Source: Patescibacteria group bacterium
GTDB lineage: Bacteria > Patescibacteriota > Microgenomatia > UBA12405
DNA length: 64,000 nt
NCBI GenBank assembly: GCA_018902845.1
Contig: JAHIPV010000017.1
Coordinates: 16,438 to 80,437, forward strand
Reading direction: 5' to 3'
The notes under the pieces: generated by a model
The model's database searches: none
What the model was told of the DNA's origin: nothing
The model's input: only the letters and a program-made list of their open reading frames with translations
In this document: positions 14,778 to 49,383 of the stretch, piece by piece
Layout of the letters: each line of letters starts with the position of its first letter
How positions within the stretch are numbered: the stretch's first letter is position 1
Made by a program: the position numbers and the translations under genes

Positions 14778-16391
14778 TTACCAAACTTCTCTCAACAATT
14801 TTCCCATAATTACACCCTTACTAATCACAGTTTCGTAGTCCATTTCAAAATAATTTTCTTTCATTTCCTCAAGTAAAATTCCAGCCCACCTATAACTCAC
14901 CGCTCCAAATTGATCCGGTTGTTGGCCTTTTGCTTCTTTCAATCTAGTAATCCTGTCAATCAATGATTTTTCTATTTTCATCTGCCTTAACTTTTCATCA
15001 GCTTCTTCATAAGTCACAGTTCCTGTCAGCTCCGTATTAATCACATCTCCTAAATTTTCTACTAGTCTTGTACTAAGTACCATTTCTTTTTTTCTTTTTC
15101 TAAAAGAAAAAATAACATCCAACAAAGAATCACTATTATTTTCCTCTGCGAAAACAACACAACCTAACAGATCTTCGTCAAAGGGATATTGATTTAACAA
15201 TAAATTACAATCTTTTCTAATCAATTCATAAACAGGATCAGTCCAAAAACCCAAAAACATTTCTTTTTCCTCAACGTCAAAAAAATAAAATTTTGTCTCC
15301 CCAATCGAAATATTATCTTCAAAATATCTCCAACTATCTTCATTTCCGCTGTTTCCGGTTATCAAATGATATTCGCCTCCGCTACCAATAGGTATTACAT
15401 TTACACCACAGCCATTAATATCTCCTCTATTTTCTACTACCACAAAGCCTGTCTCATCTGACTCTACTGGTTCATCCCCACCACAAAAAACCTTCAGATA
15501 AGCAGGCGATCCAATATAAAATACCAAAGAATCAGATAAATCTAAAACATCTGAAACCAAAATATCATCAGCTTCAAAACCAAGCTCGTTTAATACATAA
15601 GCAGTACTATTATCAACAATCTCTCCATGATTAGAAAATACCGAATTACTCCCAAAACCATCAACAATCGCACTTTTTTGCAAAACAGTTCCGTCACCCA
15701 AAAGAGTATCTTCATACCTCAACGGCCTACCATCCACCCATCTTCCCAACAATTTGTCAAATGTACTTCTTTCCCCCAAAACAGCATATTCACTCGTATC
15801 AAATCCTATTCCACCAACAGTCAGCAGGGTATCGGAAATATCCAAAACACTTTCATTTTTATTCTTTACATAATTGTTGACAGTATACAAACCTTGATAG
15901 GGGATTAAGTCTGAACCATACTTAGCAAAATCAAAAACCGGTAAAATATCTTTTAAAGAAGGACTAAAATCCTGAACTAATTCAACAGAAGAAATGGGGT
16001 AATTTTTTTTATTTAACTGCAACAATACATTTAAAGCAATAGAACTTACACCCCCACCAAATTCCGCCCCACTCCACGCATTATATGCCTTAATAGCTCC
16101 AAGATGAGGGCTTCCCAAACTAATTACTTTATTTAATCTTGTATCATCTTTATTATCCTGTGCCCACATTCTGCCGACCATACCCCCCAAACTATGCCCC
16201 ACAATAGTAAAATTCTTCTCTACGGGTATTTTTTCATCTACAAATTCATCAAACCTTTCGACAATTTCGGAAACTGGTCTTCTCCAATCATAATTCCAAA
16301 CAAACAAATCAGCCGTCTCTCCAATACCCACAGTAGTCTCATCCTCATACCCCTTAGATTTTAAAGTGTTTATTAAACCATCGTAATTTTT
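14778..16391 (-). pseudogene. 3' half (537 codons) of an element-interrupted secreted lipase/acyltransferase-like alpha-beta hydrolase gene
   Basis: YDWRR, GHSLGG nucleophile elbow, GSPHLG, GDGTV; frame stays open 60 nt upstream of the ORF-track start up to the att core and is in frame with 48532-49383. Confidence 0.85.
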
Positions 16392-16416
16392 TACAAAAGG
16401 TGTACTCTAATACATC
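16387..16416. other. Left attachment junction (host half-site, AC crossover, element half-site)
   Basis: TTTTTT-AC-AA-AAGGTGTACTCTAATACATC; core TTACAAAA at 16391-16398. Confidence 0.82.
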
Positions 16417-16487
16417 ATAATTAACATCTTTAATTAAATCGTTGCACACAAAGAAGACACAACTAAAAATACTCAGGATTTAATAAA

Positions 16488-16979
16488 ATGAGGTTAAGCA
16501 AAGCTTTTAGAAAAAGAATAGAATTAGGTTATATGGATTTGTATACAAAACTACAAACGAAAGAAACGAAAGTCAAACAAAATACTAAAAAAGTTGACAC
16601 TAAATACATAGTGGCAATAATAATAAGTTTAATAATTGGCGCTTCAGTCTTAGGCTATGGGTTTCTTAATTACCAATACAAAATGAATGCCTTGAATGAA
16701 AAGACAAGATCAGAGGAACAAGCAATTGAACAAAAGAAAGCAGAAGAAGAAGCAATAAAACAACAATATGCTGATTGTGCAAAAGAAGCAGTAAAAAGAG
16801 CACAAGACATTTTAAAAAGCAGGGTGGAACTAATGGAATCCACAGGTAAAACAAACAATACTGAATACAAAATGTGGAAAGAGGCAATAAAAAAGAATCT
16901 ATTTGACAAAGATGACAAAAATGAATATTACAACGATTGTCTCAAGAAATACGGTCTAGAACTTACCGTAGAAGAATAA
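16488..16979 (+). CDS. Hypothetical single-pass membrane protein with coiled coil
   Basis: One TM segment followed by a charged helical region; true start may be later. Confidence 0.55.
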   Translation: MRLSKAFRKRIELGYMDLYTKLQTKETKVKQNTKKVDTKYIVAIIISLIIGASVLGYGFLNYQYKMNALNEKTRSEEQAIEQKKAEEEAIKQQYADCAKEAVKRAQDILKSRVELMESTGKTNNTEYKMWKEAIKKNLFDKDDKNEYYNDCLKKYGLELTVEE

Positions 16980-17003
16980 AATTACAAATTCATTGAGAGA
17001 TAA

Positions 17004-17495
17004 ATGAAAAACACCGTTGCATATCACGAAGCGGGGCATGCTGTTGTCGAGTTTTTTCTTTTTGGAAAAGTAAAAAAGGTAAGCATAATACCAGGCAAGG
17101 AATTTCAAGGTCAAACAACTTCGTATTCGGTAAAAAACCTTGACCCTGATATCGACTTTTCACCCAGAACAAAAGATAATTTAGAGAAAATAATTGTCAT
17201 TTTTTATGCCGGGAATGAAGCCACAAAAAGGTTCAAGGGCCGATACGACTATATTGGATCACAATCTGACTATAAAAAAATTGGTAATATCTCTATCTAT
17301 CTTACAACTGGAGGCAAAGCTGAAGGTTATTTCCTGAAATACCTTAGAGAACGAGCAAAAGACTTGGTTAAACATCACTGGAGTTCCGTAGTCGCTCTTG
17401 CAGAACAGCTAATGGTGAAAAAAACAATGGAAACAAAAGAAATAGAAGATGCTATTAGATGTTCTTGGAAAGGAGGTAAACAAAATGACACATAA
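17004..17495 (+). CDS. Stand-alone zinc metallopeptidase domain (FtsH/M41-like)
   Basis: AYHEAGHAVV, AG.EA, GSQSD motifs; no AAA domain. Confidence 0.7.
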   Translation: MKNTVAYHEAGHAVVEFFLFGKVKKVSIIPGKEFQGQTTSYSVKNLDPDIDFSPRTKDNLEKIIVIFYAGNEATKRFKGRYDYIGSQSDYKKIGNISIYLTTGGKAEGYFLKYLRERAKDLVKHHWSSVVALAEQLMVKKTMETKEIEDAIRCSWKGGKQNDT

Positions 17496-17828: not shown

Positions 17829-19310
17829 TTATTTTTCAACAGATGAAATATTGGTTATCCAAAGGTCGTTTGAGTATATGTAGATTTTCTCCTTAAACCC
17901 TTCAAACTCTTTTACCAAACTAGACTTGTTGATTAAACTTTCTAAAGCCTGAGATTTTGGCAACTTCTGAGTACTTGATAAATAAACCACTACAAAAGAT
18001 GGCTTAATCTTTTCAATTTCTTCTTTTGAATTGTGAAGATCAAATTTATAATATGTTTGTTTTATTCCAACCCCAATACTTTCTTCCGTTAAAATAACGG
18101 CATCTTCAGGAACTAAACTATTTATATATTCATACGTTGCCAGTAAAGCATTGTCATTACGAATAAAAAACCTTTTGTACCAAGTAAAACTGTTAATTAG
18201 TAAGATTATGCCCAAAAATACATGAAGTCGCAATCGATTTTTCTTAGAATTTATCCAAGCAGAAAGGGCTACTGTTAAATATAGATACAAGGGTGTTAAT
18301 AGCATTATTAAGTATTGAGGTGCTCTAAGTGAAATTCCAGCATAAAATAATAATGTAGCCAATGACCAGCTTAATAACAGGGGTTGTTTGGGCTTGACTT
18401 TACCGACAATATGCTTAACCAAGTCTCTAACGACGACAAGTGTTCCTATTAACAAAGTTAATATTGTTGAAATATAAATCCAATATGTGTTAACCATGGC
18501 TTTTATTGCATCGGAAAAAGAATACTGTACCCCACGGGCACCAAATATTCCAAATGCCCTTTTGATTTGAACCATGTTTTGATCCAGATATATTTGACCC
18601 CAATTTAAATACATGACCAAAACATAAGTAACAATTGTCAACAGTCCAAACAGATATAAAGATATATGCTTTTTTGGATCTCGTTTTGTGAATATTAAAT
18701 TTAATAGAGGTACACCAAAATAATAGATCCCTGTATGTTTGTAAATTACCGTTATCGCTAACATAACACCCGACAAGATATACCAAATATTCTTTTTCTG
18801 AGATATTGCGTATGAGTAAAGAAACAACGAGATAATTCCAAGAAGTATCATCATGTTTTCCATCAAATTAAGACGATTGGTATAAATTAACCAGCCGTCA
18901 GAAGCCATTAGCAAGATTGAAATAATAGATACTTTTTTATTAGCTAGTTTTTTAAAAAAATAGTAGGTGAATAACAGTGCAATTGAGGATGCCCCGGCAG
19001 ATACAATTCTCGCACTAGTTACACCTTCAAAGCCCGTGTATTGAAATACTAGACTTTTTAATTTTGAATCAAACGGAGGATGATATAAATAAGGTCCATA
19101 GCCTTTTTTACCTTCTAATTTAATAGCGGGATAATTGTAATCAATATAGTTTGAAGATATTGAGGAATAGACAGGTTCGTCCCATTCATAACCTGGTTTT
19201 GAATCAATCTTGTACAATCTCAACATTAAGGAGATAACAACCACAAGATTTACCATCACCAGTTCAGATAGAAAATTATTATTTTTTAATAACGTTGTTA
19301 GTTTTTTCAT
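17829..19310 (-). CDS. GT-C fold membrane glycosyltransferase (ArnT/PMT-like)
   Basis: WDEPVY, YHPP, multiple TM helices, C-terminal extracellular domain. Confidence 0.8.
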   Translation of the reverse strand: MKKLTTLLKNNNFLSELVMVNLVVVISLMLRLYKIDSKPGYEWDEPVYSSISSNYIDYNYPAIKLEGKKGYGPYLYHPPFDSKLKSLVFQYTGFEGVTSARIVSAGASSIALLFTYYFFKKLANKKVSIISILLMASDGWLIYTNRLNLMENMMILLGIISLFLYSYAISQKKNIWYILSGVMLAITVIYKHTGIYYFGVPLLNLIFTKRDPKKHISLYLFGLLTIVTYVLVMYLNWGQIYLDQNMVQIKRAFGIFGARGVQYSFSDAIKAMVNTYWIYISTILTLLIGTLVVVRDLVKHIVGKVKPKQPLLLSWSLATLLFYAGISLRAPQYLIMLLTPLYLYLTVALSAWINSKKNRLRLHVFLGIILLINSFTWYKRFFIRNDNALLATYEYINSLVPEDAVILTEESIGVGIKQTYYKFDLHNSKEEIEKIKPSFVVVYLSSTQKLPKSQALESLINKSSLVKEFEGFKEKIYIYSNDLWITNISSVEK

Positions 19311-19314
19311 TGTT

Positions 19315-20388
19315 TTAATGTAGTTGAAAATAACGAAGTACTTGATCTGTTTTGTTTTTATTCATAAAATATCGCCATTTAAAAAAATGTATCGAAAAGT
19401 CATAGATCAAAGCACAAGTGATTGGTGGCAAAAAAAATGTGTAAAAGTCTTTTTCAATAAAAACATTTACCAACCCCGCGACAATCAGTCCAAACAAAAC
19501 AAAAGCTGGTATTGTTACAAACCCAATAAGTCCTTTGGTGAAAACGGTAAAAACAGATAGTAGCAAAATAAACAGACTTAACACCAATACTGCATGTACT
19601 TGGAAGTTTCTCCTTTTGGCAAATGGACAATCAGGATAATATTTAAGCATTAAAGCGGCACTCTGGCCACTACGCGATATTTGTCTGAAATACTGTTTCC
19701 ACCTTATTCGATGTTTGTGATATGAAACTACTTGATTAGTTACTAATATTTCAAAACCATTTTTAACTAACAACCATGAAATGACATAATCATCGTAAGT
19801 ACTGGCTTCTTTTGAAAAATTAAGCCCAAAATCCTTTTTTATTGAATTAAAAGCTTTTTTCGACAATAACAATGCGGTTGTTACTGGTAAACTTTCGGTA
19901 TTCCCAAAATTATTAATGTTTAATTTACCAAAAAAAGGAAAATCAGGATTGTTTTTGATTAAAGCCTTGTCTTGTAATTTTGAAATTAAGAGTCCCGAAT
20001 CTTCTTGCCAAGAAACCGCTGTTCCTGCTACAACTTCAACTTTGTATTGTTTTGAAAGTTTAATAGCAAGTTTAAGTGCGTCTTTTTTAAGTGTTGCTTT
20101 AGAATCAGTGAAAAATATATACCGACCTTTAGCTCTATTTGCTCCTACCCATCTTTTTAAATGAGCGTCTCTTGTGTAGCTTTTTCCTGGTTTAATCTCG
20201 ATATATTTAACTGTCCTGTTTTTTATGTAATCCCTTATTGCTGATCGAGTAGAATCGTTAGAAGATGCCACAATGATAATTTCAAATGGTCGACAAGACT
20301 GAGCCAACAAGGACTTGACCGTCTCCCTTACAGTAGCCTCTGATTCTCTGGCGGGAATGATAACAGAAATTTTATTATAAGTAGTCAT
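19315..20388 (-). CDS. Glycosyltransferase family 2 with C-terminal TM helices
   Basis: ISVIIPAR, FTDS, YDD, RQISRSG. Confidence 0.8.
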   Translation of the reverse strand: MTTYNKISVIIPARESEATVRETVKSLLAQSCRPFEIIIVASSNDSTRSAIRDYIKNRTVKYIEIKPGKSYTRDAHLKRWVGANRAKGRYIFFTDSKATLKKDALKLAIKLSKQYKVEVVAGTAVSWQEDSGLLISKLQDKALIKNNPDFPFFGKLNINNFGNTESLPVTTALLLSKKAFNSIKKDFGLNFSKEASTYDDYVISWLLVKNGFEILVTNQVVSYHKHRIRWKQYFRQISRSGQSAALMLKYYPDCPFAKRRNFQVHAVLVLSLFILLLSVFTVFTKGLIGFVTIPAFVLFGLIVAGLVNVFIEKDFYTFFLPPITCALIYDFSIHFFKWRYFMNKNKTDQVLRYFQLH

Positions 20389-20523: not shown

Positions 20524-20880
20524 TTAGCTATTAACAGTCAATTCAATTTTGTCTATCCTTTTCTCCAACACTGAAACCTCGAAAGACTTAAGAACCATAC
20601 CTGTTAGAAAACCAATCGTATTGGCTACTCTACAATCTAATCTTCCATCTCTCACCTCATTTATCGTATCAACCAACAATTTGGTTACATCTTCCACTTT
20701 CTCTATTTTTATTTGTGGTAGGGGAGAAGACACCACCACTCTTCGATTCTGACCACCTTTAACTTGAACACTCCGTTTTTCATTAGCAGTTATGTCTGGA
20801 TTGTGAAAATAACAATAATCACTATCTTTCATGGCATTAGCCTGACATCGTTTTCCTTTAATATTTTTTTTACATTTCAT
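20524..20880 (-). CDS. Small Cys/His zinc-binding protein (HGGxSTG-like, phage/satellite-associated)
   Basis: C..KGKRCQANA...YCYFH...KGG pattern. Confidence 0.5.
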   Translation of the reverse strand: MKCKKNIKGKRCQANAMKDSDYCYFHNPDITANEKRSVQVKGGQNRRVVVSSPLPQIKIEKVEDVTKLLVDTINEVRDGRLDCRVANTIGFLTGMVLKSFEVSVLEKRIDKIELTVNS

Positions 20881-20941
20881 AAGCTACTTATGGGGGTACT
20901 CATTATAATTTACAACAGAATCAGCATCACATTCATCCAGA

Positions 20942-21145
20942 CTACCCATACCACTTCAAAAGTGGCAGAATAACAAGGCCGTGCTTACTTATAACCTCAT
21001 CCACTTTGCGCTCCACCCCTTCTTTGTCTTTGTAATAATTAACCCCACCTCGCTTGTAAGCAATAATTACAGTATCTCTTAAATCGTTCGTTTGGGACAT
21101 TATCACTTTTTCTAATTTATTAATCCTTACCGCTAAACTTGTCAT
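20942..21145 (-). CDS. Hypothetical protein
   Basis: ATGA overlap with the helicase stop. Confidence 0.5.
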   Translation of the reverse strand: MTSLAVRINKLEKVIMSQTNDLRDTVIIAYKRGGVNYYKDKEGVERKVDEVISKHGLVILPLLKWYG

Positions 21146-22170
21146 TTCTTTTCTTTTGAATTAAATAATTGTTGGGCAAACTTTGTATTCACCTCTTCCT
21201 TTGTTTCTGTTCTAGACTGTGGTGTTATTTCTTTAAACAAAACTCTGTTTTCTAAAAATTCCATTCTCACATCTTCCGAAGGTGACTGATCCCTAAAATT
21301 ATCTAAAATTAGTTGAGTTTTAACCTTGATGTTTTGACTGCTCTTGTAATTTTGATACGGTCGCCAAACTATCAGTGTTCCAGAAAGTTGAGACTTCGCT
21401 TGACCACCTCCATAAATATCTTGTGCGGTGGGCTTTCTTATAACTCGGATTGAATCATCAAAAATCTTGTCCGGCTCGTTTTCTTTCACATATTCCTGAA
21501 CCATTTTAGGTAGCTCGCTAATAACCACTGTTTCTTTAACGTGATTTAAAATAAAAGAAATTATCGGCCTGTGTTTTGTAAAATTCACAATTTGAGTGAT
21601 ACATGACATTAATTTTCTCCAATCGCTCGCTTCATTTTGTGAGATATAGGTGGTTAAATTGTCATAGATTAAAACATTCACCATTTTCTCATCTGCTAAG
21701 ATTTTTGATATTTGCATAGCTTTGTCGAAATCCACCAAATTCTCTTTCATTAGTTTCTCGGCTGAAACTCTAAAGAGTTTATCCTTTGTTTGTTTCGCAA
21801 AATCTTGTCTCATTTTGATATTTTCCTCGGCTTCGCTAACGGACAATCCAAACCACAAGGCCGTCATTCTGGAAGAAAATTGAAACGTGTTTAACTCTGT
21901 ATCTATAAAAGCAACTTTCTTGCCTTTTCCAATCATGTTTATTGCGATCTTCATCATTAGAGAAGATTTGCCTGACTTTTGAATTCCGGCTACCATGTAA
22001 CAACCACCGGTTCGAAATCCTTTGAGTTGTAAATCAAGATTTGTAAATCCACTCATTATTCTTGGTGGGTTTAACTCCTCTTGCTCCAGTTCGAGAATTG
22101 AATCTAATAAATCTTTTTGAGGCTTTAGCTTCTCGACTGCACTTCTTGCCTCATTGTTTGAATCGAACAT
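21142..22170 (-). CDS. DnaB-like RecA-fold helicase/ATPase
   Basis: SGFTNLD, Walker A GIQKSGKS, IDTE, IYDNL, IYGGG. Confidence 0.8.
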   Translation of the reverse strand: MFDSNNEARSAVEKLKPQKDLLDSILELEQEELNPPRIMSGFTNLDLQLKGFRTGGCYMVAGIQKSGKSSLMMKIAINMIGKGKKVAFIDTELNTFQFSSRMTALWFGLSVSEAEENIKMRQDFAKQTKDKLFRVSAEKLMKENLVDFDKAMQISKILADEKMVNVLIYDNLTTYISQNEASDWRKLMSCITQIVNFTKHRPIISFILNHVKETVVISELPKMVQEYVKENEPDKIFDDSIRVIRKPTAQDIYGGGQAKSQLSGTLIVWRPYQNYKSSQNIKVKTQLILDNFRDQSPSEDVRMEFLENRVLFKEITPQSRTETKEEVNTKFAQQLFNSKEKK

Positions 22171-22799
22171 TATTTTGCTCCTAGTAAAAATTTAACAGCT
22201 TGAGGAAACGGCATTTTATCCCTAAGCATAAGAAAATCTATTGAATCACCATGTTGACCACAACCAAAGCAATGAAAATGATTATCTTGAAAGACCGTAA
22301 AGGACGGGGACTTTTCATCATGGAACGGACAACAAAAGACCAAATTGCCACCCATGCGCCTAGGGTTCTCGTTTATTAAATTTTCTATCCTCGATTCTCT
22401 CGCAATCTCTATGTCGGTTTCCGTTAAGTTGTCACAACGCCGTGACATTTGTTCCTGATACAAAGCTCGTCTATACCAACCTATTTTCTTTTTTAGTTCG
22501 ATTAGCCTCTTTCCTGGTGCATGGATTATGTATTCGTCATAAATCAACCTCCATATTTTGTCACTAACACAATTTTCTAAGACTTCATAACACGATTTGA
22601 TTCGAGCCTCTACATTCTCTTTTTCCAATTCGGCCTCGAGCAATAATTCGTTAACTCTTTTTTCCATCTCCGGAAAAGCTAACATCCATTCGTGAGGAGA
22701 TTGTGCCAAGTCTTGCAGAATCTTTTCTCTCCACCCTCTCCCTAATTCATCAATGTAGCCTAGATGTTCCGTCATTTGAGTCCTCCTAACAAATGCCAC
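22170..22799 (-). CDS. CHC2 zinc-finger protein (primase Zn-binding domain, no TOPRIM)
   Basis: CPFHDEKSPSF, HCFGCG, GDSIDF at the C terminus. Confidence 0.85.
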   Translation of the reverse strand: MAFVRRTQMTEHLGYIDELGRGWREKILQDLAQSPHEWMLAFPEMEKRVNELLLEAELEKENVEARIKSCYEVLENCVSDKIWRLIYDEYIIHAPGKRLIELKKKIGWYRRALYQEQMSRRCDNLTETDIEIARESRIENLINENPRRMGGNLVFCCPFHDEKSPSFTVFQDNHFHCFGCGQHGDSIDFLMLRDKMPFPQAVKFLLGAK

Positions 22800-23269
22800 A
22801 TCTTATCTTCTGAAATAATTTTAGACTTGAGGAGTGTTTTTTCTTCAAAAGCTGTTTTTAATTCCGTTGTCTTTATTGGTTTTAATGTATTGTCGGTAAC
22901 TCGTCCACACTTCGTACCTACTTCCGCACTTCTCACTTCCGCACTTCGGGAGTTAAGTGCATAGGAGTTCCGCACTTTAGGTGGTTGAGAAAGTAAAGGT
23001 GCATAGGAGTTCCGCACTTCGTAAATATTTACCATACCACCCTGTATAGTCTTTTCTCCAACTTTCTCAAATAACCCTGTTCTCTTAATAGCTGATACCA
23101 CTGTCTTGTCTGATACATGCGCCATCTTGGCAATTGTCCTGTGTGAGGCATAACACTGACCTAAACCATTATCTGAAAATGAAAACATAGCAAGCAAAAC
23201 AGCTATATCCTCTACCCTGCCGGTAAGAGTTAGTAGTCTGGGGTCAATTCGAATGATAAAACTATTCAT
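22772..23269 (-). CDS. Putative replication initiator with N-terminal winged HTH
   Basis: CYASHRTIAKMAHVSDKTV HTH typical of phage initiators; internal direct repeats; upstream of the Zn-finger and helicase genes. Confidence 0.6.
   Translation of the reverse strand: MNSFIIRIDPRLLTLTGRVEDIAVLLAMFSFSDNGLGQCYASHRTIAKMAHVSDKTVVSAIKRTGLFEKVGEKTIQGGMVNIYEVRNSYAPLLSQPPKVRNSYALNSRSAEVRSAEVGTKCGRVTDNTLKPIKTTELKTAFEEKTLLKSKIISEDKMWHLLGGLK
22904..23019. repeat. Iteron-like direct repeats (putative origin)
   Basis: TTCCGCACTT at 22922, 22937, 22968 and 23010; 21-bp GTGCATAGGAGTTCCGCACTT at 22957 and 22999. Confidence 0.75.
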
Positions 23270-23292
23270 TTTACATTTCTAATGACCCAGCG

Positions 23293-23529
23293 CTAGGTCA
23301 CCTGATAAATGCGACTTTTTAACTCGTTAATGGTCTCAATCAAGTCCCTTGCCTCTGGTCGGACACCATCACGATCCCAATATCGCTTCAATAATTCTTC
23401 TGCCGTTCCCTTATCGTCCTGAAATACAAAATTGACAAACTTGGCATTTTGTTTCTCAAGCCGAAGTAACGAAAATTTCATTACCTTTAAAACTACCGCA
23501 CTGTAAAAATCGTTCGTTATATATTCCAT
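23293..23529 (-). CDS. DUF5659-like small protein
   Basis: T.DFY.A..L and LKSRIY pattern recalled from mobile-element replication modules. Confidence 0.55.
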   Translation of the reverse strand: MEYITNDFYSAVVLKVMKFSLLRLEKQNAKFVNFVFQDDKGTAEELLKRYWDRDGVRPEARDLIETINELKSRIYQVT

Positions 23530-23637
23530 TTTCTTTTTTAATTAATAAATCTTTGTCATCAAGTAAATCACCAAAATACAGGCAAATTCTTTTGATAACA
23601 CTTTTCTTTAAAACCGGTGAAAGATTGGTAGTTATTA

Positions 23638-23835
23638 TCATTTCTTTCTGTCTTTCGGCCAAAATCTTGTAAGGTGATCCCAATATTTTTTAGACACTAA
23701 AATATCTCTCACCGAAGCAGGAACTTGAGAATCCAAGGTTAATTCTTCATCGGCACGCAAAAAAAGACCGGATTGTGTTAGTAATAGGTGAGCAATATCT
23801 TGAGTAAGGTTATTTGAAATTCTTCCTTTTATCAT
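23638..23835 (-). CDS. Hypothetical protein
   Basis: Co-oriented small ORF in the replication operon. Confidence 0.4.
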   Translation of the reverse strand: MIKGRISNNLTQDIAHLLLTQSGLFLRADEELTLDSQVPASVRDILVSKKYWDHLTRFWPKDRKK

Positions 23836-23890
23836 TAGATATAGTCTAAAGATGCGAGAAAGGTTAGTTAAACAGGAAATGCGTGGTTAG

Positions 23891-25045: not shown

Positions 25046-25291
25046 ATGCAAAACTCAAATAAAATAACATTCTCTAACCCAACCTTCACTCCAACCTCTC
25101 CAAGAACGTGGCCACCCTTATTAACACTCACTCAAGCTTCTCTAATACTCAATATAAGTGAACACACTATCAGAAGATGGGTTAATAAAGAAAAGAGGCT
25201 AGAAGCCACCAGGGTAAGCACAAGAGGAGATATGAGATTCAAAAAAGAGGACATTCTAAAAATAATCCAAGAAGGCATTAAAAAAATATGA
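25046..25291 (+). CDS. Excisionase-like HTH_17 protein (candidate directionality factor)
   Basis: LLTLTQASLILNISEHTIRRW...GDMRFKKEDI; directly upstream of the recombinase. Confidence 0.75.
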   Translation: MQNSNKITFSNPTFTPTSPRTWPPLLTLTQASLILNISEHTIRRWVNKEKRLEATRVSTRGDMRFKKEDILKIIQEGIKKI

Positions 25292-30444: not shown

Positions 30445-30446
30445 AT

Positions 30447-37503: not shown

Positions 37504-37506
37504 AGT

Positions 37507-39048: not shown

Positions 39049-39167
39049 TTGAGAATCCAAACAAATTCAAAAACCGATTCAGAAACGGAAAATAATTAAG
39101 CTTTATAAAGTATAATCAAGGTAAGTTATCGGACAGTTTGTTTATTTCCATTTTATAAAAAATTATC

Positions 39168-40691: not shown

Positions 40692-41934
40692 GTTATTTAC
40701 TTATATTGTTGTGGTTTTTTCTTTTTTTCTTGGTCCTAACTTTACCTATGCTTCTAACACACATCCCGAACTTTGGCCTGTTCGTTCTATAGACACAATG
40801 AAAACATCACGAGACAAAGCGCGGGCTGAATTAAACAATCCCGATTTTGATACTCAAATAGAAAAAGAACTCACACTTATAAAAGAAATAGGGGCAAATT
40901 ATGTGGCCATAGATACTCCATACGACAAAGAATTTCTTCCCTTTTTAAAAAGATGGATAAGTTTAGCCCGCAAAATGGGGCTAAAAGTTTGGTTTCGCGG
41001 CAATTGGTCCAATTGGGAAGGCTGGTTTGAATATGAAAAAAACATGACTCCACAGGAACACATTAGAAAAACAGTTGAGTTTATAGAAACCAATCCGGAT
41101 TTATTTGAAGATGGCGACGCCTTTGATCCTTGTCCGGAATGCGAAAATTCGGGGTGGTGGAAACAGCCTCAAGATGACGAAAAATATAATCAATTTATTC
41201 AGAATCAGCGTATAGCGGTAAAAACATCTTTTTCCAAAATAAAAAAAGATGTACATAGCAACTGGTTTTCCATTATTGGAGGTCGTGCCAAGGAAGTATT
41301 AAACAAAAAAACATTTAAAACATTAGACAATCTGGTCACTATTGATCATTACATTAAAGATCCTTTGGGAATGGGTGAATACATTGATTACTTTTCTCAA
41401 AACTTTGACACAAAAGTATTGCTTGGAGAATTCGGCGCTCCTATTCCAGACATCAACGGAGACATGGATGAAACAGAACAAGCAGAATTTATAAATCAAC
41501 TTTTTATACAATTTTATAAACATAAAGATAATGTGCTGGGGATGAACTACTGGGTAATTACCGATGGAACAACTAGTTTGCTTAACAGTGACGGTACAAC
41601 CCGTCAGGCATTTGAAATAATTAAAAATTACTATATTCCAGGTGTCATCAAAGGAACAATTAAAAACACACTAGGTGATCGGTTGAAAAACATATCAATC
41701 AAAACCAGCGATGGGTTAAACAGCGCTATTACAGACCGCAAAGGAAGTTACAAAATGATTGTCCCAGCCGGTGATACCACTATTTTAATTAACCAATCAA
41801 AATACGATCAAGCAACAGACAAAATCACTATTTCCCACGGAAGCGAAATCACCAAAGACATCATTCTAACTCCAAAAACCCCGTCGATTCTCTACAAACT
41901 CCGCCTTTTTTTAAAGAAAAAATTTAATCTATAA
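40645..41934 (+). CDS. Secreted TIM-barrel glycoside hydrolase-like protein with C-terminal beta-sandwich (carboxypeptidase-regulatory-like)
   Basis: Signal peptide (start probably ~40675); GLKVWFR, IDHY, LGEFG clan GH-A-like motifs; TDRKGSY domain. Confidence 0.65.
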   Translation: MELLRYMNCKMKKIIKLFTYIVVVFSFFLGPNFTYASNTHPELWPVRSIDTMKTSRDKARAELNNPDFDTQIEKELTLIKEIGANYVAIDTPYDKEFLPFLKRWISLARKMGLKVWFRGNWSNWEGWFEYEKNMTPQEHIRKTVEFIETNPDLFEDGDAFDPCPECENSGWWKQPQDDEKYNQFIQNQRIAVKTSFSKIKKDVHSNWFSIIGGRAKEVLNKKTFKTLDNLVTIDHYIKDPLGMGEYIDYFSQNFDTKVLLGEFGAPIPDINGDMDETEQAEFINQLFIQFYKHKDNVLGMNYWVITDGTTSLLNSDGTTRQAFEIIKNYYIPGVIKGTIKNTLGDRLKNISIKTSDGLNSAITDRKGSYKMIVPAGDTTILINQSKYDQATDKITISHGSEITKDIILTPKTPSILYKLRLFLKKKFNL

Positions 41935-41983: not shown

Positions 41984-42277
41984 TTAGAAGCCTTTTAAAA
42001 AGTCCGAAAGGGTTAATCCAAGAACATGTGCAAGTCTCCAGACAGTGTGAAGACTAGGTGAATAATAACCTTGTTCAATCTTGTTTACATATGTCCGATA
42101 ATAACCTGCATTTAAAGATAGATTTTCTTGGCTAATTCCTCTCTTTTCTCTAATCTTTCTTAAATATTTGCCAAACTCTATACCAAATCGCCCTTTTTCA
42201 GTTTTTCTGTCTTTTTGTGTATCAATAGTGGATGGTTTCACATCTTTATTACAAGACAACCACAACAGTAATACCAC
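41984..42277 (-). CDS. XRE-family HTH regulator
   Basis: LRKIREKRGISQENLS...YVNKIEQG..SPSL. Confidence 0.85.
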   Translation of the reverse strand: MVLLLWLSCNKDVKPSTIDTQKDRKTEKGRFGIEFGKYLRKIREKRGISQENLSLNAGYYRTYVNKIEQGYYSPSLHTVWRLAHVLGLTLSDFLKGF

Positions 42278-42295
42278 GCACTAGTATGGTAGTAA

Positions 42296-43738
42296 GTGGT
42301 AAAATATGAAATGAGAAGCAGGGTTGACCAACTAGTTTTAGCCAGAAGGATTATTTTCTTAGTTGTATTGTTGGTTTTAGCTATACCTTATGGACAGATC
42401 GCGAGAGCTGAAGAAGTTATTTATAACTTTAAAATTACGGCGACAAACCCCACAAACGGCGAAAACAGTGTTCCAACTAATTTAAAGGATGGTAACTGCC
42501 AAAACCAGTATTGTGCCTTAATGGTTGGCCTAGGAAACTCAGATAAAAGCCCAATGGGGCATGGTTATCCGTTTTTAGTACCGGATTCAATTAATACTTC
42601 AACCATTCAAATTACTGGGTCTAACAACCCGTCTCAAATAAAGGTTATGGGAGAATCAGAAGGAGGAGGCGATGATAGCTTTTACCATTCAAACGCCCTG
42701 TTTCTATTTAACTCATTGGGTAATCTTTATTATCTTGAGCCAAATTCAACTTATTCGGTAACCTTTAAAGGAGGAACGAGTGGGGTAAAGGCCCAATATG
42801 ATTATGGTGAATATTTTGCGTATTTAGATCAAGATTATACTTTTAGTTTTACGACAGGAAACGGACCGTCAAGAACAAACGAAGATTATCCTACACTAAC
42901 GGCGAGACCAACACTAACACCAAGCGTTTCCTTAAAGAATGATTCTGTAGAAGTTAGGCTAACTTCTACTCCAATACCCATGTTAATTGATAAAAAAGAT
43001 AATATTCCCACGACAAGTAAACTCACCGTTACTTCCAGTGCTTCACCGACAATCTCTATTCCCGCAAAAAAGGAAGATGACATTACTGTTACTTCGGATG
43101 ATTTTAAAAGTTCTAGCAAAATAACATTTTGGCAAAGAATAAAAAATTATTGGACCAATTTTATAAATAAGTTGTTTAAAAAAACTAAAAAAAAAGAAGT
43201 AACAATAAAAAACATTGCCCCTGCGCCTTCTGTGATTCAAGGGACACCAACGCTAATACCAGCGAATACGATAGCCCCTCTTCCTACAAAGAAACCCTTA
43301 CCCACAATCAATACTAAACCTCTGTCTATTATTAATGAAAATGTACTTAAAAACGAATTTGGAATAAGTGATTTGGGTGTAATTGCGTCCATTCTTGATA
43401 GCTCTGAACAACTTGAAAAATACGAGAGAGAATATTATCAAAAAAATAAAAAATGGCCAAAGCAAGAGTCAACAAATCAAAAATTAAGAATATTTATCCC
43501 TAGTATCAATGCTACAAAAACATGTCAAGGAAGTAATGTTGTTGAGGTTAAGAACGCATCTATAGGTGTAGACAATGCAAAGGTTAAGAGGGATGAATGT
43601 TTTCGTAACGGAGGTGAAAAAAAAGAAGGAATGAGTTTGGATGAACAAATTGCCAGTTTTCAAAAAGGCTGTTATCAAAAAGATTACTCGGTAGCAAAAG
43701 ACACACTAGATGAATTATTAAGTAAATATTGCCGATAA
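42296..43738 (+). CDS. Secreted Ig-like (Big_5-like) protein with Pro/Thr-rich stalks
   Basis: Signal peptide; ITATNPTNGENSVPTN...LEPNSTYSV...DYTFSFTTG. Confidence 0.6.
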   Translation: MVKYEMRSRVDQLVLARRIIFLVVLLVLAIPYGQIARAEEVIYNFKITATNPTNGENSVPTNLKDGNCQNQYCALMVGLGNSDKSPMGHGYPFLVPDSINTSTIQITGSNNPSQIKVMGESEGGGDDSFYHSNALFLFNSLGNLYYLEPNSTYSVTFKGGTSGVKAQYDYGEYFAYLDQDYTFSFTTGNGPSRTNEDYPTLTARPTLTPSVSLKNDSVEVRLTSTPIPMLIDKKDNIPTTSKLTVTSSASPTISIPAKKEDDITVTSDDFKSSSKITFWQRIKNYWTNFINKLFKKTKKKEVTIKNIAPAPSVIQGTPTLIPANTIAPLPTKKPLPTINTKPLSIINENVLKNEFGISDLGVIASILDSSEQLEKYEREYYQKNKKWPKQESTNQKLRIFIPSINATKTCQGSNVVEVKNASIGVDNAKVKRDECFRNGGEKKEGMSLDEQIASFQKGCYQKDYSVAKDTLDELLSKYCR

Positions 43739-43770
43739 ACAAATGACATCAAAAAGTATCAAATCCAAAA

Positions 43771-44472
43771 ATGAATAAATTAAAAAACATTGCCAAGTGG
43801 ATTCTATTCTTACCTATTAGCCAATTATTATTTTTCCTAGTGTATATCATGCTTTCGTATGGATATATGGTCGTCTGGGAATTCATAAAAAATCAAAACT
43901 TTGTAATTTTGATCCTTCTACTTCCCGCAATTATTTCGGCAGTTGTATCAATTACCTTTTATTTAAACCTTTTTTCTGCCTTTATTACAGAATTAATCTC
44001 TCCTAACAAAACAACTTACTTTTTATCTTTTGGTCTTTTAGTTTTTCGTCGCTTGAAAACAACAATCACCTATTCTCCAGTAGCCACAACCACCGACAAT
44101 GCTCGCATAATAGATATGCCTATGCCAATGCTACTAATTGTCTACTCGGCTCAGTTATTAATAGTTCTAATTTATGGTCTCTTTAAATATCACAATAAAA
44201 GCGACTCAGACTCCAAAAAGCCAATTTTAACCATACCCGCAAACGATCCTACTAAGAAAAATATAGGTGAACACAATAAAAATATTCTCATAAAACATAA
44301 GCCCCAACCATACAACCCGATAGAGTTCCCGACACTGGTAAAGTACAACGACCAGCAGATCGAGGACGCAATCCAGAAATTGATGAAAGAACACGGCATG
44401 ACGAGACACCAGTGTCTGGTGAATCTGGAGCAGGACTTAAGCGAGATAGAGGCAAGAGCGACAGGGAAGTAG
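43771..44472 (+). CDS. Hypothetical membrane protein
   Basis: Several N-terminal TM helices. Confidence 0.6.
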   Translation: MNKLKNIAKWILFLPISQLLFFLVYIMLSYGYMVVWEFIKNQNFVILILLLPAIISAVVSITFYLNLFSAFITELISPNKTTYFLSFGLLVFRRLKTTITYSPVATTTDNARIIDMPMPMLLIVYSAQLLIVLIYGLFKYHNKSDSDSKKPILTIPANDPTKKNIGEHNKNILIKHKPQPYNPIEFPTLVKYNDQQIEDAIQKLMKEHGMTRHQCLVNLEQDLSEIEARATGK

Positions 44473-44488
44473 GTATAATAAGTATAAA

Positions 44489-45094
44489 ATGAAAAAAAAT
44501 ATTTTATTTAAAATTCCAATTTTATTAATTGGTTTGTTTGTTGGTTACAATTTAAGAACCAAGCAGGTAATTAAAACTAAAGGATCAGTAATATCTAAAT
44601 CAGTTTGTGATGAAGTAATGAAAAGGGTAGTTTTAGATCCTGTTAAAAAATATGAAGGTAAACCTGCTAAGGTAGACTTTTCAACCGATGATTTTGCGGC
44701 ACAGTTTCATACTGCGATTACAAATCAAGTTGCTTTAGGTCCAAACTTTGCCGGACACTATACTTTTGCAACATGGGGATGTGGAACAAGTTGTTTAAGT
44801 TATGCAATTGTAGATTCCATATCTGGAAAAATAGTTTTATCTGATGGTGCTCTTGAAGAAGAGCACCTTACACCGCATTTTGATATTAATAGTCGGTTAT
44901 TAGTATTTAATTCTAAAGATGACTTTGAGCAATATAAGGGTAAAAATATTAACGAGATTCTTGATAAAGACAGGTTTGATTTTGATGGTTTAAGCCGAAC
45001 ATATTATGAACTTGTGGATGAAGGAAATTGGGATAGGGTTTGGTTAAATAAAATATGCACTGAAAGTGTCCTAGATGGAATCTATAATTATTAA
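44489..45094 (+). CDS. Hypothetical exported protein
   Basis: N-terminal anchor; PNFAGHY...WGCGTSC motif. Confidence 0.6.
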   Translation: MKKNILFKIPILLIGLFVGYNLRTKQVIKTKGSVISKSVCDEVMKRVVLDPVKKYEGKPAKVDFSTDDFAAQFHTAITNQVALGPNFAGHYTFATWGCGTSCLSYAIVDSISGKIVLSDGALEEEHLTPHFDINSRLLVFNSKDDFEQYKGKNINEILDKDRFDFDGLSRTYYELVDEGNWDRVWLNKICTESVLDGIYNY

Positions 45095-45698
45095 TATCTT
45101 GGTAAGTCAAATAACAAAAAATGAAAAAAACAAAATTTATTTAGCAGTAGTCTCAATATTAGTTATAGTTGGATTATTTTTATTTAAATACAAAAACAAC
45201 AACAAAGTTATTGTTGACCAAATTCAAACCAATACCCCAGAAGAGCCGGTACCGACAAAGACAAAACCAATCGTATTTACCCAAGAACAATTAGATGAGT
45301 ACTATCAAACAACTAAAAATCCATATGTACTTCATATCAGAAAAGTCTTGGATGGTTATTTAAATGGCAAAAATATTGGGATGGCTTCTCCAGAACTTGT
45401 TATTGAAACGCACAAAGTAGAGGAATATACGGCTGGATTATCTTCAATTGACAAAGAATACTACAAGAGTAAATTTATTGTATTTTCAATGAATGACAGT
45501 ATTGCAGGTGGAGTAGAGGTCTCAATTATATTTCAAGATAAACCAGATAAACTATTTACAGTTTGGGTGTATCAATTAGCTGGTGGTGAATATGATTTTC
45601 GGTCAATAAGAGATAATCCCAAATTCACTTTAGAAAAAATGAAAGAAATACAGATATTGTACAAAACTATCCTTGAAGACGAGGTTCATTCAATTTAA
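45075..45698 (+). CDS. Hypothetical single-pass membrane protein
   Basis: N-terminal TM helix, Pro/Thr linker. Confidence 0.55.
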   Translation: MESIIINILVSQITKNEKNKIYLAVVSILVIVGLFLFKYKNNNKVIVDQIQTNTPEEPVPTKTKPIVFTQEQLDEYYQTTKNPYVLHIRKVLDGYLNGKNIGMASPELVIETHKVEEYTAGLSSIDKEYYKSKFIVFSMNDSIAGGVEVSIIFQDKPDKLFTVWVYQLAGGEYDFRSIRDNPKFTLEKMKEIQILYKTILEDEVHSI

Positions 45699-45766
45699 AT
45701 TCACACACAAAGGTCCTAACTTCTCCAGGACACTAGAACACGGCTAGATTTGGAATAAATAAATCT

Positions 45767-47155
45767 ATGAATACAAAATTAAAATCAATTTTCACAAAAG
45801 TTTTCTTTATTTCAAAATGGCTAATTAAATGGATAAGGTGGTTACTTTTTTTACCTTTATCTTTTTTAATCACTGCTGGTGTATATTTCTTACTTGGTGA
45901 AAAATATGCCGAGTTAAAACCCGACTTATTCCTATATCAACCATTAGCCGACCTAGTACCAGGCTTAGAAGCTCCTAATCAGTCAGAATTACTTCCCTAT
46001 CAAATAATATCTGGATTACTACTAGGCTTTGGCTGGATCTTCGTAGGAACAATTATTGCCCCGTCAAAGAAATTTTTTTCATCTTCTGTGTTGTTTTTGT
46101 TAACTACTATATTGATAATTGTATATTCCATATCTTCACCCGATCTTATCGCACCACAACATTTATTTGCCTTTGTTTTCACAATTTTAGCCGTAATTAT
46201 TGCCTATCCTAAAAAAGTCTTGAAATTAATGAAGACCCCCTTTGGGGAATATATTAGGCTTAGTTTGATTCTATCAACGGTTACTATGTTTGGTTTGTTT
46301 TTTTATAACAAAAAAAGTATGAAACTTAACTGGACAATAAATAAAAAGATGGAACAAGAGGAAAAGATGTACCCTGACAGAGTGGCTCTTGATATGAATG
46401 GTGACGGAATATATGAGATGTTAGTCAATCCGGTTATGGCTGACGACTATGAAGAAGCGACTGATTCGGCAAAACCACATCTAACTCTTTACGATAGTGA
46501 AAAAAATATCATTGCAAGAACACCGGAGTGGTTTGGATCAGCACCCAATGCAAGTCATTTGGGTTTTGTTACTCCACCCATAAGTTGCTCGTTAAATGAT
46601 TTTGTACAAATTGATGTAATTGCTGGACCGCACCAAACAGAAACTATGTTTTTAAAACTGAAGGATGATTTATTGCTTCCAATCTGTAAAGTGGAAAATC
46701 CCAAGAACATAGACGATTGTTTATTCTATAACTCTAGCGGAGAATTAGGTGTTGAGGGAGGATTGTTGGGAGGATTAGGGGGTAACAATAAGCTAGGTGT
46801 TGTTGAATATGTAGACGAATATCCTCCTGATAAAAAAGAACTTGGCGATGATATAGAAAACATGATTAGCGAGGTTTTTGGAAATGATGCGACAGAAGCA
46901 ATAAAAATTGCCCAAAGAGAAACGGGTGACAAGGGGTCACGAGTGGCTTGGTCTATCTACATATTTAACGGAGAAATATTTGAACTACAAACAGGAGAAA
47001 ATTACGACGAATATTTTGATTCACTAAAAGAAAACTATGATTTCAGGTCAGAAGCGAAAAAGGATAATAGTCCTAATTTAATTAAAAAATCAAAAATGTC
47101 AAAAGAATCAGTTGAATACACTGAGCTTACGAGAAACTTTTGGACTGATAAATAG
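45767..47155 (+). CDS. Hypothetical multi-TM protein with acidic extracellular domain
   Basis: About 5 TM helices, then a DMNGDG Ca-binding-like loop. Confidence 0.6.
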   Translation: MNTKLKSIFTKVFFISKWLIKWIRWLLFLPLSFLITAGVYFLLGEKYAELKPDLFLYQPLADLVPGLEAPNQSELLPYQIISGLLLGFGWIFVGTIIAPSKKFFSSSVLFLLTTILIIVYSISSPDLIAPQHLFAFVFTILAVIIAYPKKVLKLMKTPFGEYIRLSLILSTVTMFGLFFYNKKSMKLNWTINKKMEQEEKMYPDRVALDMNGDGIYEMLVNPVMADDYEEATDSAKPHLTLYDSEKNIIARTPEWFGSAPNASHLGFVTPPISCSLNDFVQIDVIAGPHQTETMFLKLKDDLLLPICKVENPKNIDDCLFYNSSGELGVEGGLLGGLGGNNKLGVVEYVDEYPPDKKELGDDIENMISEVFGNDATEAIKIAQRETGDKGSRVAWSIYIFNGEIFELQTGENYDEYFDSLKENYDFRSEAKKDNSPNLIKKSKMSKESVEYTELTRNFWTDK

Positions 47156-47184
47156 TCTAAGATATAGACAAATGTTACAATTCG

Positions 47185-47637
47185 GTGATGGCAAGCTGTA
47201 AGGAATTAAGGGGGATCGCAAAAGCCAGACTTAAAAGTGCAAAGATACTTATGAATGTTAATGACTGGCATGGCGCAGCGTATATGCTAGCCTACGCATT
47301 GGAATGCTCTCTAAAGGCCGTAACCTGTAAAACCTTAAATTTGGTTTCTTACCCAGAAAATACAAAAAAGAAAAATATTGACTCCGTTTTTATGACCCAT
47401 AGTTTCCAACAACTCTTGCTCATTTCTGGATTAGAGAATATTTTTAGTTCCAGAGGACCGGCGGAGGCGTGGGATAACTGGGGTAAATTTACTATAGAAT
47501 ATCCTGCTAATTGGCCTCAAATTAGATATAATACTGACCTTGTTTGGGATGAAGAAAAAGTCGAGAAGCTATACGACTATCTCTTGGAATCAAGATTTGG
47601 AATAATAAGTATAATTAGGAAGAGGAGAAAATGGTAA
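47185..47637 (+). CDS. HEPN-domain protein
   Basis: ARLKSAKIL...AAYMLAYALECSLKA...THS..LL...IRY. Confidence 0.75.
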   Translation: MMASCKELRGIAKARLKSAKILMNVNDWHGAAYMLAYALECSLKAVTCKTLNLVSYPENTKKKNIDSVFMTHSFQQLLLISGLENIFSSRGPAEAWDNWGKFTIEYPANWPQIRYNTDLVWDEEKVEKLYDYLLESRFGIISIIRKRRKW

Positions 47638-47990
47638 AAATATTTAAAGAAATTCTAGAAGAAATAGTTTCCAGAAAGGGCGAAGTGAATTTGTTCGCTA
47701 TTTTGAAGATGGACGAATATACTGAAAAATGGACCGTTATCTTATCTGCTCCTTGGGTAAATGACGAGAACACAAGAGAGTGTTTCTTGCTATTGAGAAC
47801 CTTTATGATAAAAAAGTTTAGTCGTGAAGAGATGGATAAGATTGCACGGATGGGTGTTTTTACAAAAGACGAACACATAATAACAGAATTATTAAAATTT
47901 AAAGAAGGAACAGTTATCGAGGAAGATGAAAAAATAAATGGGAATTTAGTACACGAAGCGCACATATTGGCCTCAAACTCCAGTCTTTAG
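47631..47990 (+). CDS. HEPN-coupled hypothetical protein (candidate antitoxin/partner)
   Basis: Overlaps the HEPN stop; acidic; WTVILSAPW. Confidence 0.55.
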   Translation: MVKIFKEILEEIVSRKGEVNLFAILKMDEYTEKWTVILSAPWVNDENTRECFLLLRTFMIKKFSREEMDKIARMGVFTKDEHIITELLKFKEGTVIEEDEKINGNLVHEAHILASNSSL

Positions 47991-48088
47991 TATTTTTCGA
48001 GATAAAACCCAAAACTTATAGAAAATTCCTGCACACACAAATAGTAAATAAGTTGATTGTATGAAACACACGAAGTAAGATATGGAAA

Positions 48089-48277
48089 ATGAAAACTGAA
48101 ATATCAATCTTTCTTAAAGATTATGATTGTAATGTAGTTGAGCAAACAGAAAGAGCTAAGGGCACTCGTTATAAAGCCTATGGTTATTTTGATGATATTT
48201 ATCTTGAGACTCAGGGTTCAAGCTTTAATTCTGCACTACGCAGATTAAAACATAAAGCAGAAATGGCATTAGATTAA
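48089..48277 (+). CDS. Small hypothetical protein
   Basis: 62-aa ORF with upstream -10-like TAAGAT. Confidence 0.4.
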   Translation: MKTEISIFLKDYDCNVVEQTERAKGTRYKAYGYFDDIYLETQGSSFNSALRRLKHKAEMALD

Positions 48278-48507
48278 GGTATTTAGAAAGAAAAATGTTG
48301 CAAAATCTGAAGTTTTCGGAAGTACTCTTTTTTTGATGGGACAAATCTAATTCCAAGACCTAAAACAAGAAAAATGTTAGTTTGTTTAAATCCCACACAG
48401 GTCCCTGACTCCTCCAAGGTGGGGGAGCAAAACCAAGTCAATTACGAAATTTTTACCACCCAACCAACACACATAATTATTACCAACAAATAGTCGAATA
48501 CACATCA

Positions 48508-49383
48508 TTAGGTGTATAACGGTACATTCCTTACAAAAAAAGGCATTTTCCATTCCAAAGAAGGACTGGTACTTCCCGTCAACAACCCCTCCCCATTCCA
48601 ACTCCCTCCCAGCCCCGGCACCACCACGACAGTATCCGAATTATTTCCTCCAGAAACAGAACTAATCTTTAGATTGTCAAATTCATTTAAAACCCTGCCA
48701 TAAGAACCTTGGTAAAAATCTCCACCCCAATTCCTAAAAGCAATAATTCCACCACTCAAAAAATTATTATCCGTATAATCAATAACCAAAACAGAATCAA
48801 AATATATTTTTATCTGAACACTGTCAAATACTATTTTTATCACATGTTTTTCATTTTGAGTTATATCAAAATCCAAAGAGTTAACAGACTCACCCTCCGA
48901 CTTACCATAAACCTCAACAAGGCGTCCATAAGAACCACCAACGCTTTTACTCAAAGTGATATTGTTATGATCTTGATCCCAATCAGGTTCATCAAATCTA
49001 AAGTTAATTTCATAAAAATCACTTCTATCATCAGAAAGATGAAACCAAAAAGATTGATCAACACCATTCAAATTTTTAACCTCAGCAACCAACTCAAACG
49101 ATGAAAAATCGTAATTAATATCAGGATAAATATACGATCTTTCATGATATCCGGCTTCACCAATTAATTTATTATCCAAAACACGCCAACCATACTCACC
49201 GACAATAGGATCTTCGTTTTCATCAAGACTATACCCATCATGCGGAACAATCCATTTACTCAAACCAAGAGAAAAATCATCCTCAAAATATACAGTAGCA
49301 TAAACATCACCAGATTCTAAAAATGATAAAATTACAATCAAAGAAAAAAAGAAACAAACGAGTTTACTAAGAATATTCTTCAT
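48508..49383 (-). pseudogene. 5' half of the interrupted gene: signal peptide, concanavalin A/DUF1080-like domain and first strand of the hydrolase
   Basis: FEDDFS...FDNLKI lectin-fold pattern; VVVVPGLGGS oxyanion loop; last 7 residues RNVPLYT come from the element. Confidence 0.85.
48511..48541. other. Right attachment junction
   Basis: GGTGTATAACGGTACATTCC-TT-AC-AAAAAAA; core TTACAAAA at 48531-48538. Confidence 0.82.

Follow-up and report, generated by a model that had tools for sequence, protein, structure and literature searches.

The 64,000-nt window analysed here (positions below count from its first letter) comes from a Patescibacteria group bacterium, genome G000 (assembly GCA_018902845.1, contig JAHIPV010000017.1, positions 16,438 to 80,437 of the forward strand), and carries a 32-kb island that sits precisely within a conserved lipase-like (LCAT/PGAP1-like alpha/beta-hydrolase) gene. 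The island encodes a large serine recombinase (LSR), and its two ends have the appearance of hybrid sites formed from an element attachment site (attP) and a host site (attB). A second insertion at the same codon, in a genome that we call G258, allows both the sites and the recombinase to be compared. The argument depends on the following features.

16391..48530, no strand assigned: integrated element, 32,140 bp, delimited by an 8-bp core, a restored open reading frame (ORF) and a step in GC skew
16371..16416, plus strand: left hybrid site, consisting of the host half-site, AC at 16393-16394 and an element arm at 16395-16416 (arm 19/22 identical to the G258 arm)
48511..48556, plus strand: right hybrid site, consisting of an element arm at 48511-48532, AC at 48533-48534 and the host half-site (arm 17/22 identical to the G258 arm)
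48533..49383, minus strand: 5' part of the split host gene, with a hydrophobic N-terminus and a weak 3keto-disac_hyd match; its ORF continues into the element arm, where it meets a stop at 48508
14778..16394, minus strand: 3' part of the split host gene, an LCAT/PGAP1-like alpha/beta-hydrolase with a GHSLGG motif
25301..26863, plus strand: LSR, 520 aa, with a Resolvase, a Recombinase and a Zn_ribbon_recom domain
25046..25291, plus strand: HTH_17/excisionase-family DNA-binding protein, 81 aa, a weak candidate for a recombination directionality factor (RDF) and more likely a regulator

The two junctions have an 8-bp core, TTACAAAA, in common (16391-16398 and 48531-48538), and the size of the element is measured between its two copies. 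At the left junction six T residues are followed by AC and then by the element arm; at the right junction the arm is followed by AC and seven A residues. The preliminary description had given the host site as TTTTTT-AC-AAAAAA, which is right on the left side and one A short on the right. Removal of the element restores a stop-free 821-aa host ORF running from 49383 to 14778, and among all in-frame joins enumerated near both ends the restoring join has the longest shared core. Genome G009 has an intact orthologue, also of 821 aa, with which the restored ORF shares 56% identity over residues 4-821. The junction is uninterrupted in 13 of 14 relative loci, and the remaining one ends at a contig edge. 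The GC skew changes from -0.23 in the left flank to -0.03 in the element and to -0.25 in the right flank. The host gene is itself widespread, being present in 76 of 104 genomes of the family when searched with a 50-aa junction probe. Partial hydrolase matches in three family genomes (G455, G463 and G365) were considered as further insertions and rejected, as they proved to be contig ends. One promoter-like match was found at the left junction, no more than chance predicts (1.1 expected).

Joining the element ends produces a 46-bp imperfect inverted repeat about AC, as had been claimed in the preliminary description: 14 of 22 positions are complementary about this centre, compared with 3-9 of 22 about the 13 other centres tested, and the motif TGTAC..T.ATACA.C can be read in both arms. 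Among random pairs of genome positions, 14/22 complementarity occurs at a frequency of 5.5e-4. In the host site, symmetry is confined to the innermost 6 bp (8/22 overall).

The 520-aa LSR gene and the 81-aa HTH_17 ORF were both found where the preliminary description had placed them. All three LSR domain profiles (PF00239, PF07508 and PF13408) score above cut-off. Judged against the Bxb1 residue list given in PMC12884075, the catalytic and active-site residues R8, S10, R83 and R86 are present, as are the cysteines of the zinc-ribbon region (C328, C331, C352 and C361). The gene stands 8.9 kb from one element end and 21.7 kb from the other. The best PDB sequence matches of the protein are integrase domains of TP901-1 and A118 (E about 1e-8), and the eight other G000 serine recombinases that could be aligned by blastp are 23-26% identical to it. 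Among 1.84 billion proteins, no other 50%-cluster representative is more than 45% identical to it; a search of genome contigs for related loci with this single LSR gave Bacillota-type matches only (26-28% identity), and in the viral contigs of IMG/VR no related locus was found by LSR protein or by arm pattern. No tested integrase from a lineage of the candidate phyla radiation (CPR) turned up in the literature searched.

A profile search of 401 genomes of the class (12 matches) identified G258, a genome of the same family and a different genus, in which the hydrolase gene is interrupted at the same codon. Its contig C25 carries parB, a signal peptidase gene, a tRNA-Val gene, the 3' part of the hydrolase gene, an arm and an LSR gene that lies about 100 bp past the hydrolase break; the product is 72-73% identical to the window LSR over the roughly 360 residues present. 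Contig C34 carries the 5' part of the hydrolase gene, the other arm and a MutH-family nuclease/C5-methylase pair, followed by DnaB-like, Phage_rep_O and DUF5659 genes. The G258 LSR fragment is 100% identical over 359 aa to a database protein, P0002, that aligns with the window LSR over its full length at 78% identity; because of this identity we count G258 and P0002 as one instance. The G258 arms match the window arms at 17/22 and 19/22 positions (random pairs reach 17/22 at 5e-6), the joined G258 site is symmetric at 15/22, and with the element excised in silico the G258 gene reads as a 748-aa ORF without stops. G000 and G258 are the only genomes with exact arm matches (132 genomes of the order searched for one arm, 401 genomes of the class for the other). 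Further arm-pattern matches with two or three mismatches (8 and 9) were rejected as chance, being similar in number to reversed-pattern controls, with none within 1.5 kb of an LSR or hydrolase match. The backbone order relative to the arms is the same in the two elements, including the positions of the DnaB-like and DUF5659 (70%) homologues and of the Phage_rep_O protein. The G258 element as a whole is inverted relative to the host gene: the arm found at the 3'-gene junction in the window stands at the 5'-gene junction in G258. Because a 78%-identical LSR adjoins a near-identical arm at the same host codon, the LSR at 25301 is very likely the cognate enzyme of the window's predicted att sites, which lends comparative support to their proposed role as its substrates.

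Comparison of the two insertions also points to where crossover would occur. The shared core is 8 bp long in the window and 5 bp in G258, which places the two differently around the cut. If element site and host site have both kept their cut position, only one dinucleotide lies within both cores, and crossover would therefore have taken place at AC (16393-16394 and 48533-48534), a placement that is independent of the symmetry argument and agrees with the central dinucleotide proposed earlier. The window core, AC/GT, is non-palindromic, whereas that of G258, GC, is palindromic. The core is reported to control the orientation of serine integrase recombination (PMC3783163), and palindromic cores are reported to permit both orientations, as for A118 (PMC3556126; 10.1101/2024.10.10.617699). 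The inverted G258 copy, a single case, has the palindromic core expected if the core alone sets orientation.

The nearest relatives of the LSR have a different target. In a midpoint-rooted tree of 38 LSRs, a long branch leads to a clade of the window LSR and G258/P0002 with 100/100 support; both its sister group and the branch that follows outward (L036) contain comM-linked LSRs, and six other G000 LSRs fall outside. Where the target is readable, relatives that are 29-42% identical interrupt comM, the core being CC, at 16 distinct C-side and 6 distinct N-side junctions (L037-L039, L041, L077 and most P rows are left out). Several LSRs (P0011, P0012, L029, L032, L033 and L046-L050) are in frame with the C-terminal part of ComM after integration, giving fusions of about 710-760 aa. 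In the comM clade, the arms have ATGT at -14 to -11 as well as CC at -6/-5. CC is also found at -6/-5 in one window arm, with an outer TGT block about 7 bp further out than in the comM clade, and CC stands at -6/-5, as a Pro codon, in 31 of 34 intact hydrolase loci. Because relatives in the tree split comM, and because CC at -6/-5 is common to the arms and the hydrolase loci, it is likely that this small clade switched target from comM to the hydrolase gene; from the tree, it would descend from comM-targeting LSRs with a CC core and would have moved to a site where most hosts have this CC. According to PMC10083194, LSR targets are strongly enriched in comM-type (Mg-chelatase) genes, into which 12.4% of the site-specific integrases of that study insert. 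The element sites of the comM-targeting CPR LSRs (L029-L078) are conserved only to about 15 bp from the CC core, near the attB-type zinc-domain position and unlike a usual attP; this geometry may represent an unusually short attP or swapped P and B geometry.

The core of G258 raises a separate question. All 37 intact family genomes read, including 12 of 12 from the genus of G258, have GT at the target dinucleotide, where a Val codon starts (34 loci from 32 genomes plus five more, mostly best-scoring probe matches, with possible bias). Both G258 junctions instead read GC, which would encode Ala. A core mismatch is reported to prevent recombination by Bxb1 (PMC5062993), and the conservative reading is therefore that the G258 host carried a rare Val-to-Ala allele that matched a GC-core element. 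Alternatively, in this single case recombination may have occurred across a mismatch, with the core made uniform later. The cores are CC in the comM relatives, AC in the window and GC in G258. A bolder proposal, which we regard as rather doubtful, is that the clade left comM by recombining across mismatched cores and still does so, such that the G258 element core overwrote the host core and the element landed backwards. No natural mismatched-core integration was found in the titles and abstract openings of the literature searched.

Taking these observations together, we consider it highly probable that a 32,140-bp element inserted at AC through its own 520-aa LSR, which would have recombined a 46-bp element site with the host site. 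The shared core, the restored 821-aa ORF and the G258 insertion bear out the view that a complete attP/attB pair can be predicted from the element ends. By established serine-integrase chemistry, dimers of the LSR would occupy each site and cleave all four strands at the 2-bp core, with rotation and religation to follow. The core alone would set orientation, allowing one orientation with the AC/GT core of the window and also the opposite one with the palindromic core of G258. Excision would need a directionality factor. The distance of the LSR from the element ends probably arose through cargo that accumulated between the LSR and the arm that it abuts in G258.

Several observations weigh against this proposal. 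At least 15 of 482,328 intergenic pairs inside the element reach 14/22 or better in a free scan; symmetry therefore counts only once the junction is fixed independently, and we take the boundary as fixed because of the restored 821-aa ORF, the GC-skew step and the second occupied genome. That genome is the only independent second instance, the link between its contigs C25 and C34 is drawn from synteny with the window flanks, the N-terminus of its LSR was not found in the assembly (nor was an HTH_17 orthologue; both are probably in an assembly gap), and its GC core requires an extra step. The window host half-site lacks CC at -6/-5, which could make it a less than optimal attB. Neither an excised circle nor an empty site was seen in contigs of 4 of 18 runs compared over 42500-54500: in runs X1 and X3, which may be where this DNA came from, a single contig crosses the right junction, and among the joints and loose ends listed none falls there (contigs lose rare variants); a 531-bp X8 contig also spans this junction. 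The long X9 pieces shown (about 99% identical) cover the host flank only, and no contig among those shown joins across the site; they may reflect an element-free strain or low cover and were not used as evidence. Finally, G000 holds ten serine-recombinase-domain genes (on contigs C2, C3, C4, C8, C9, C15 and C20), eight of them in open frames of 480-555 aa.

This abundance of recombinases, together with three tyrosine-recombinase genes, all on other contigs, could favour a nested arrangement, in which a smaller element, made up of the LSR and the replication module, lies within an older island and a different G000 recombinase produced the ends of that island. The distance of the LSR from both ends would fit such an arrangement, as would the fact that many of its relatives sit at their att site, several of them fused to the ComM C-terminus. 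However, the G258 arms correspond to those of the window and accompany a 78%-identical LSR at a distance of about 100 bp, and the backbone genes keep one order in both elements. Within the window element there is no copy of either arm above 15/22, no core longer than 6 bp occurs among the internal symmetric pairs shown, and Pfam detects no second recombinase or transposase among 31 element ORFs; thus, no second att-like pair, which the preliminary description had singled out as a refuting condition, and no second recombinase was found inside the element. A generic repeat search of 16000-49000 gave no internal repeat indicating a nested element, and no further copy of either arm with fewer than 5 mismatches in 22 exists in this genome. 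We therefore regard nesting as very improbable. More plausible, although still unlikely in our judgement, is that the sites and the LSR are cognate and the system has decayed or depends on a host factor, such that it would not serve as a stand-alone tool. The lack of any sign of excision in contigs of four runs is consistent with decay, as is the departure of the window host half-site from the family consensus. The LSR also has S82 where the DRLxR motif normally has D; against its being a defect, S is invariant in 13 of 13 aligned relatives, and the ORF is full-length with the catalytic Ser and Arg residues and four Cys in place. A term search of the PMC10083194 supplements turned up no CPR benchmark. 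On the other side, the first batch of LSR/att sets predicted in that study was active in 15 of 17 cases, though these were chosen phage elements.

Serine integrases recombine attP with attB unidirectionally and without host factors, and excise only with an RDF. The preliminary description had proposed the HTH_17 protein encoded at 25046-25291 for this role. Its gene lies 9 bp upstream of the LSR gene on the same strand, and the protein scores above cut-off for the TIGR01764 excisionase family; this much of the proposal holds. Its size is near that of several known RDFs (7-9.3 kDa; 10.1101/2024.08.21.608926), and the RDFs of phiRv1 and TP901-1 are described as small, with limited similarity to those (Xis) of tyrosine systems (PMC1470463). 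Synteny is patchy. Of 26 informative related loci (28 minus self and one short locus, some of them near-duplicates), 12 have an HTH_17 gene immediately upstream, and in the other 14 there is none within 450 bp upstream, including L031, L041-L043 and L076, whose LSRs are 36-42% identical to that of the window. An HMM search found no HTH_17 in 20-kb regions spanning two complete comM elements (L078 and L068), and the closest HTH_17 homologues among those compared (43-45%) adjoin LSRs that are only 26-27% identical, both near DUF5659. In addition, RDFs of LSRs are described as generally lacking conservation of synteny (PMC12286644; 10.1101/2024.08.21.608926) or of sequence (PMC12286644). It is therefore improbable that HTH_17 is the cognate RDF, and it is more likely a regulator belonging to the element backbone. 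A conserved ORF of 50-70 aa lies within 350 bp upstream of other LSR genes (L029, L032, L033, L035, L044-L049, L051, L053, L055 and L056; four were scanned, with no Pfam match). It precedes the LSRs of the comM-fusion subclade more consistently than HTH_17 does and is a candidate directionality factor there; an HMM search found no homologue of it in the window.

The rest of the element consists of a predicted replication block, a terminase-like lead and cargo.

20524..25006, minus strand: predicted replication/backbone block, with ORF118, a DnaB-like helicase, a CHC2 zinc-finger protein, an HTH_36 initiator-like protein, DUF5659 and ORF371
26995..27507, minus strand: 170-aa ORF, a lead for a small terminase; the clusters that resemble it by language model are viral, and in one of them 15% of members have Terminase_2
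27620..33248, plus strand: cargo, type I restriction-modification genes hsdM, hsdS and hsdR
33997..41934, plus strand: cargo, GT2 glycosyltransferases, a LAB_N protein, a PMT_2-like membrane glycosyltransferase and neighbours
17829..20388, minus strand: cargo, PMT_2-like and GT2 glycosyltransferases
16488..17495, plus strand: cargo, membrane-anchored ORF163 and a stand-alone Peptidase_M41-like ORF
41984..47990, no strand assigned: cargo, an HTH_3 regulator, five ORFs without assignment, and a HEPN-domain ORF with an overlapping 119-aa neighbour

Features of phage-inducible chromosomal islands (PICIs) that are matched by profile are an integrase, an Xis/AlpA-like regulator and a primase/helicase module; the small terminase is a language-model lead only, the 170-aa ORF having no Pfam, PHROG or NCBIfam match. 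No capsid, portal, large terminase or tail gene, such as a prophage would carry, was detected among the element ORFs scanned (31 with Pfam, 21 with PHROGs), and Pfam found no relaxase or type IV secretion gene of an integrative and conjugative or mobilizable element among the 31 ORFs. Because a replication block and a terminase-like lead are accompanied by no relaxase, conjugation or capsid match, we tentatively suggest, at somewhat less than even chances, that the element spreads as a self-replicating, helper-packaged, satellite-like circle. Two stretches of cargo at about 44600-45700 have 66-76% identical DNA copies on G000 contig C8 (29332-33549), between other LSR genes, which suggests that cargo is shared among islands of this genome. 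The Peptidase_M41-like ORF (17004-17495, 163 aa) stands alone, without the FtsH ATPase part. Homologues of both the HEPN ORF and the 119-aa ORF (47185-47990) lie side by side near a related LSR in L041, and the two may form a toxin-antitoxin or defence pair.

The view that the host is an ultra-small CPR bacterium, as the preliminary description had suspected, is supported by the size of G000 (1.06 Mb at 93.5% completeness) and by the ParB of G258, of the same family, which clusters at 90% with proteins named Ca. Shapirobacteria. Ten serine-recombinase-domain genes make a genome of this size unusually dense in them. Elsewhere in the window, the contigs of all four runs have many loose ends and a very high summed depth at 53085-53305, marking a multicopy repeat that adjoins a tRNA-Gly gene.

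Sets of LSRs and att sites have already been mined by the thousand (PMC10083194), and the IOD lists 182,734 attB/integrase pairs, serine and tyrosine together (PMC12884075). The LSR and sites described here are one more candidate integrase set of this well-known kind, ready to test and probably orthogonal, with better comparative support than usual: two natural insertions define the LSR, both sites and the crossover point, and P0002 with the G258 sites makes a second set. The more instructive parts are evolutionary, namely the likely switch from comM to the hydrolase gene and a G258 core that differs from the invariant codon of the host. If that core reflects mismatch tolerance, it bears on how integrases gain new targets, and would be a natural record of relaxed core proofreading and of how integrases change target genes; multiplexing by core swaps with this LSR would then be limited.

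Among known systems, the LSRs mined by Durrant et al. (PMC10083194) have the same domain set as the window LSR and likewise insert into coding genes; its length is within the 400-650 aa of their filter and the shared core is under their 20-bp limit. Neither the N-terminus of the window LSR nor the arm motifs turned up in the eight supplementary files of that study (1,081 cluster rows and 70 listed LSRs, which are not the full database). The comM-targeting class differs in its target and in its CC core, in place of an LCAT/PGAP1-like hydrolase gene and AC/GT, and its arm motifs are conserved out to about 15 bp from the core, compared with about 21 bp in the window; moreover, the comM gene of this genome is intact (512 aa, contig C20), with no insertion at its NPCPCG codons. 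The relationship of the window LSR to that class is by descent only. Like A118/LI, TP901-1, Bxb1 and phiC31, the window system has an imperfect inverted-repeat element site of about 46-50 bp (14/22 in the window, 15/22 in G258), a 2-bp core shared with the host and a poorly symmetric attB within a host gene, comK for A118 and the hydrolase gene here. In serine integrases the zinc-domain motif is shifted 5 bp inward in attB relative to attP; the outer attP block of the window lies at -21 to -13 and has, by eye, no clear counterpart in the host half-sites. This block is near the attP zinc-domain position (16-24) reported for LI integrase (PMC3783163). Unlike those phage integrases, to which its sequence similarity is only distant, the window LSR is carried by no recognisable prophage. 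The combination of an LSR, a helicase/primase-like block and defence cargo is reminiscent of staphylococcal cassette chromosome (SCC) and phage-satellite-like islands, although the LSR scores only 94-103 bits on CcrB/CcrC, compared with an NCBIfam cut-off of 900, and acts, as predicted, as a single recombinase on another target gene. By the features tested, rather than a member of the comM class, a Ccr or part of a prophage, the window system is a predicted large serine integrase with its att sites.

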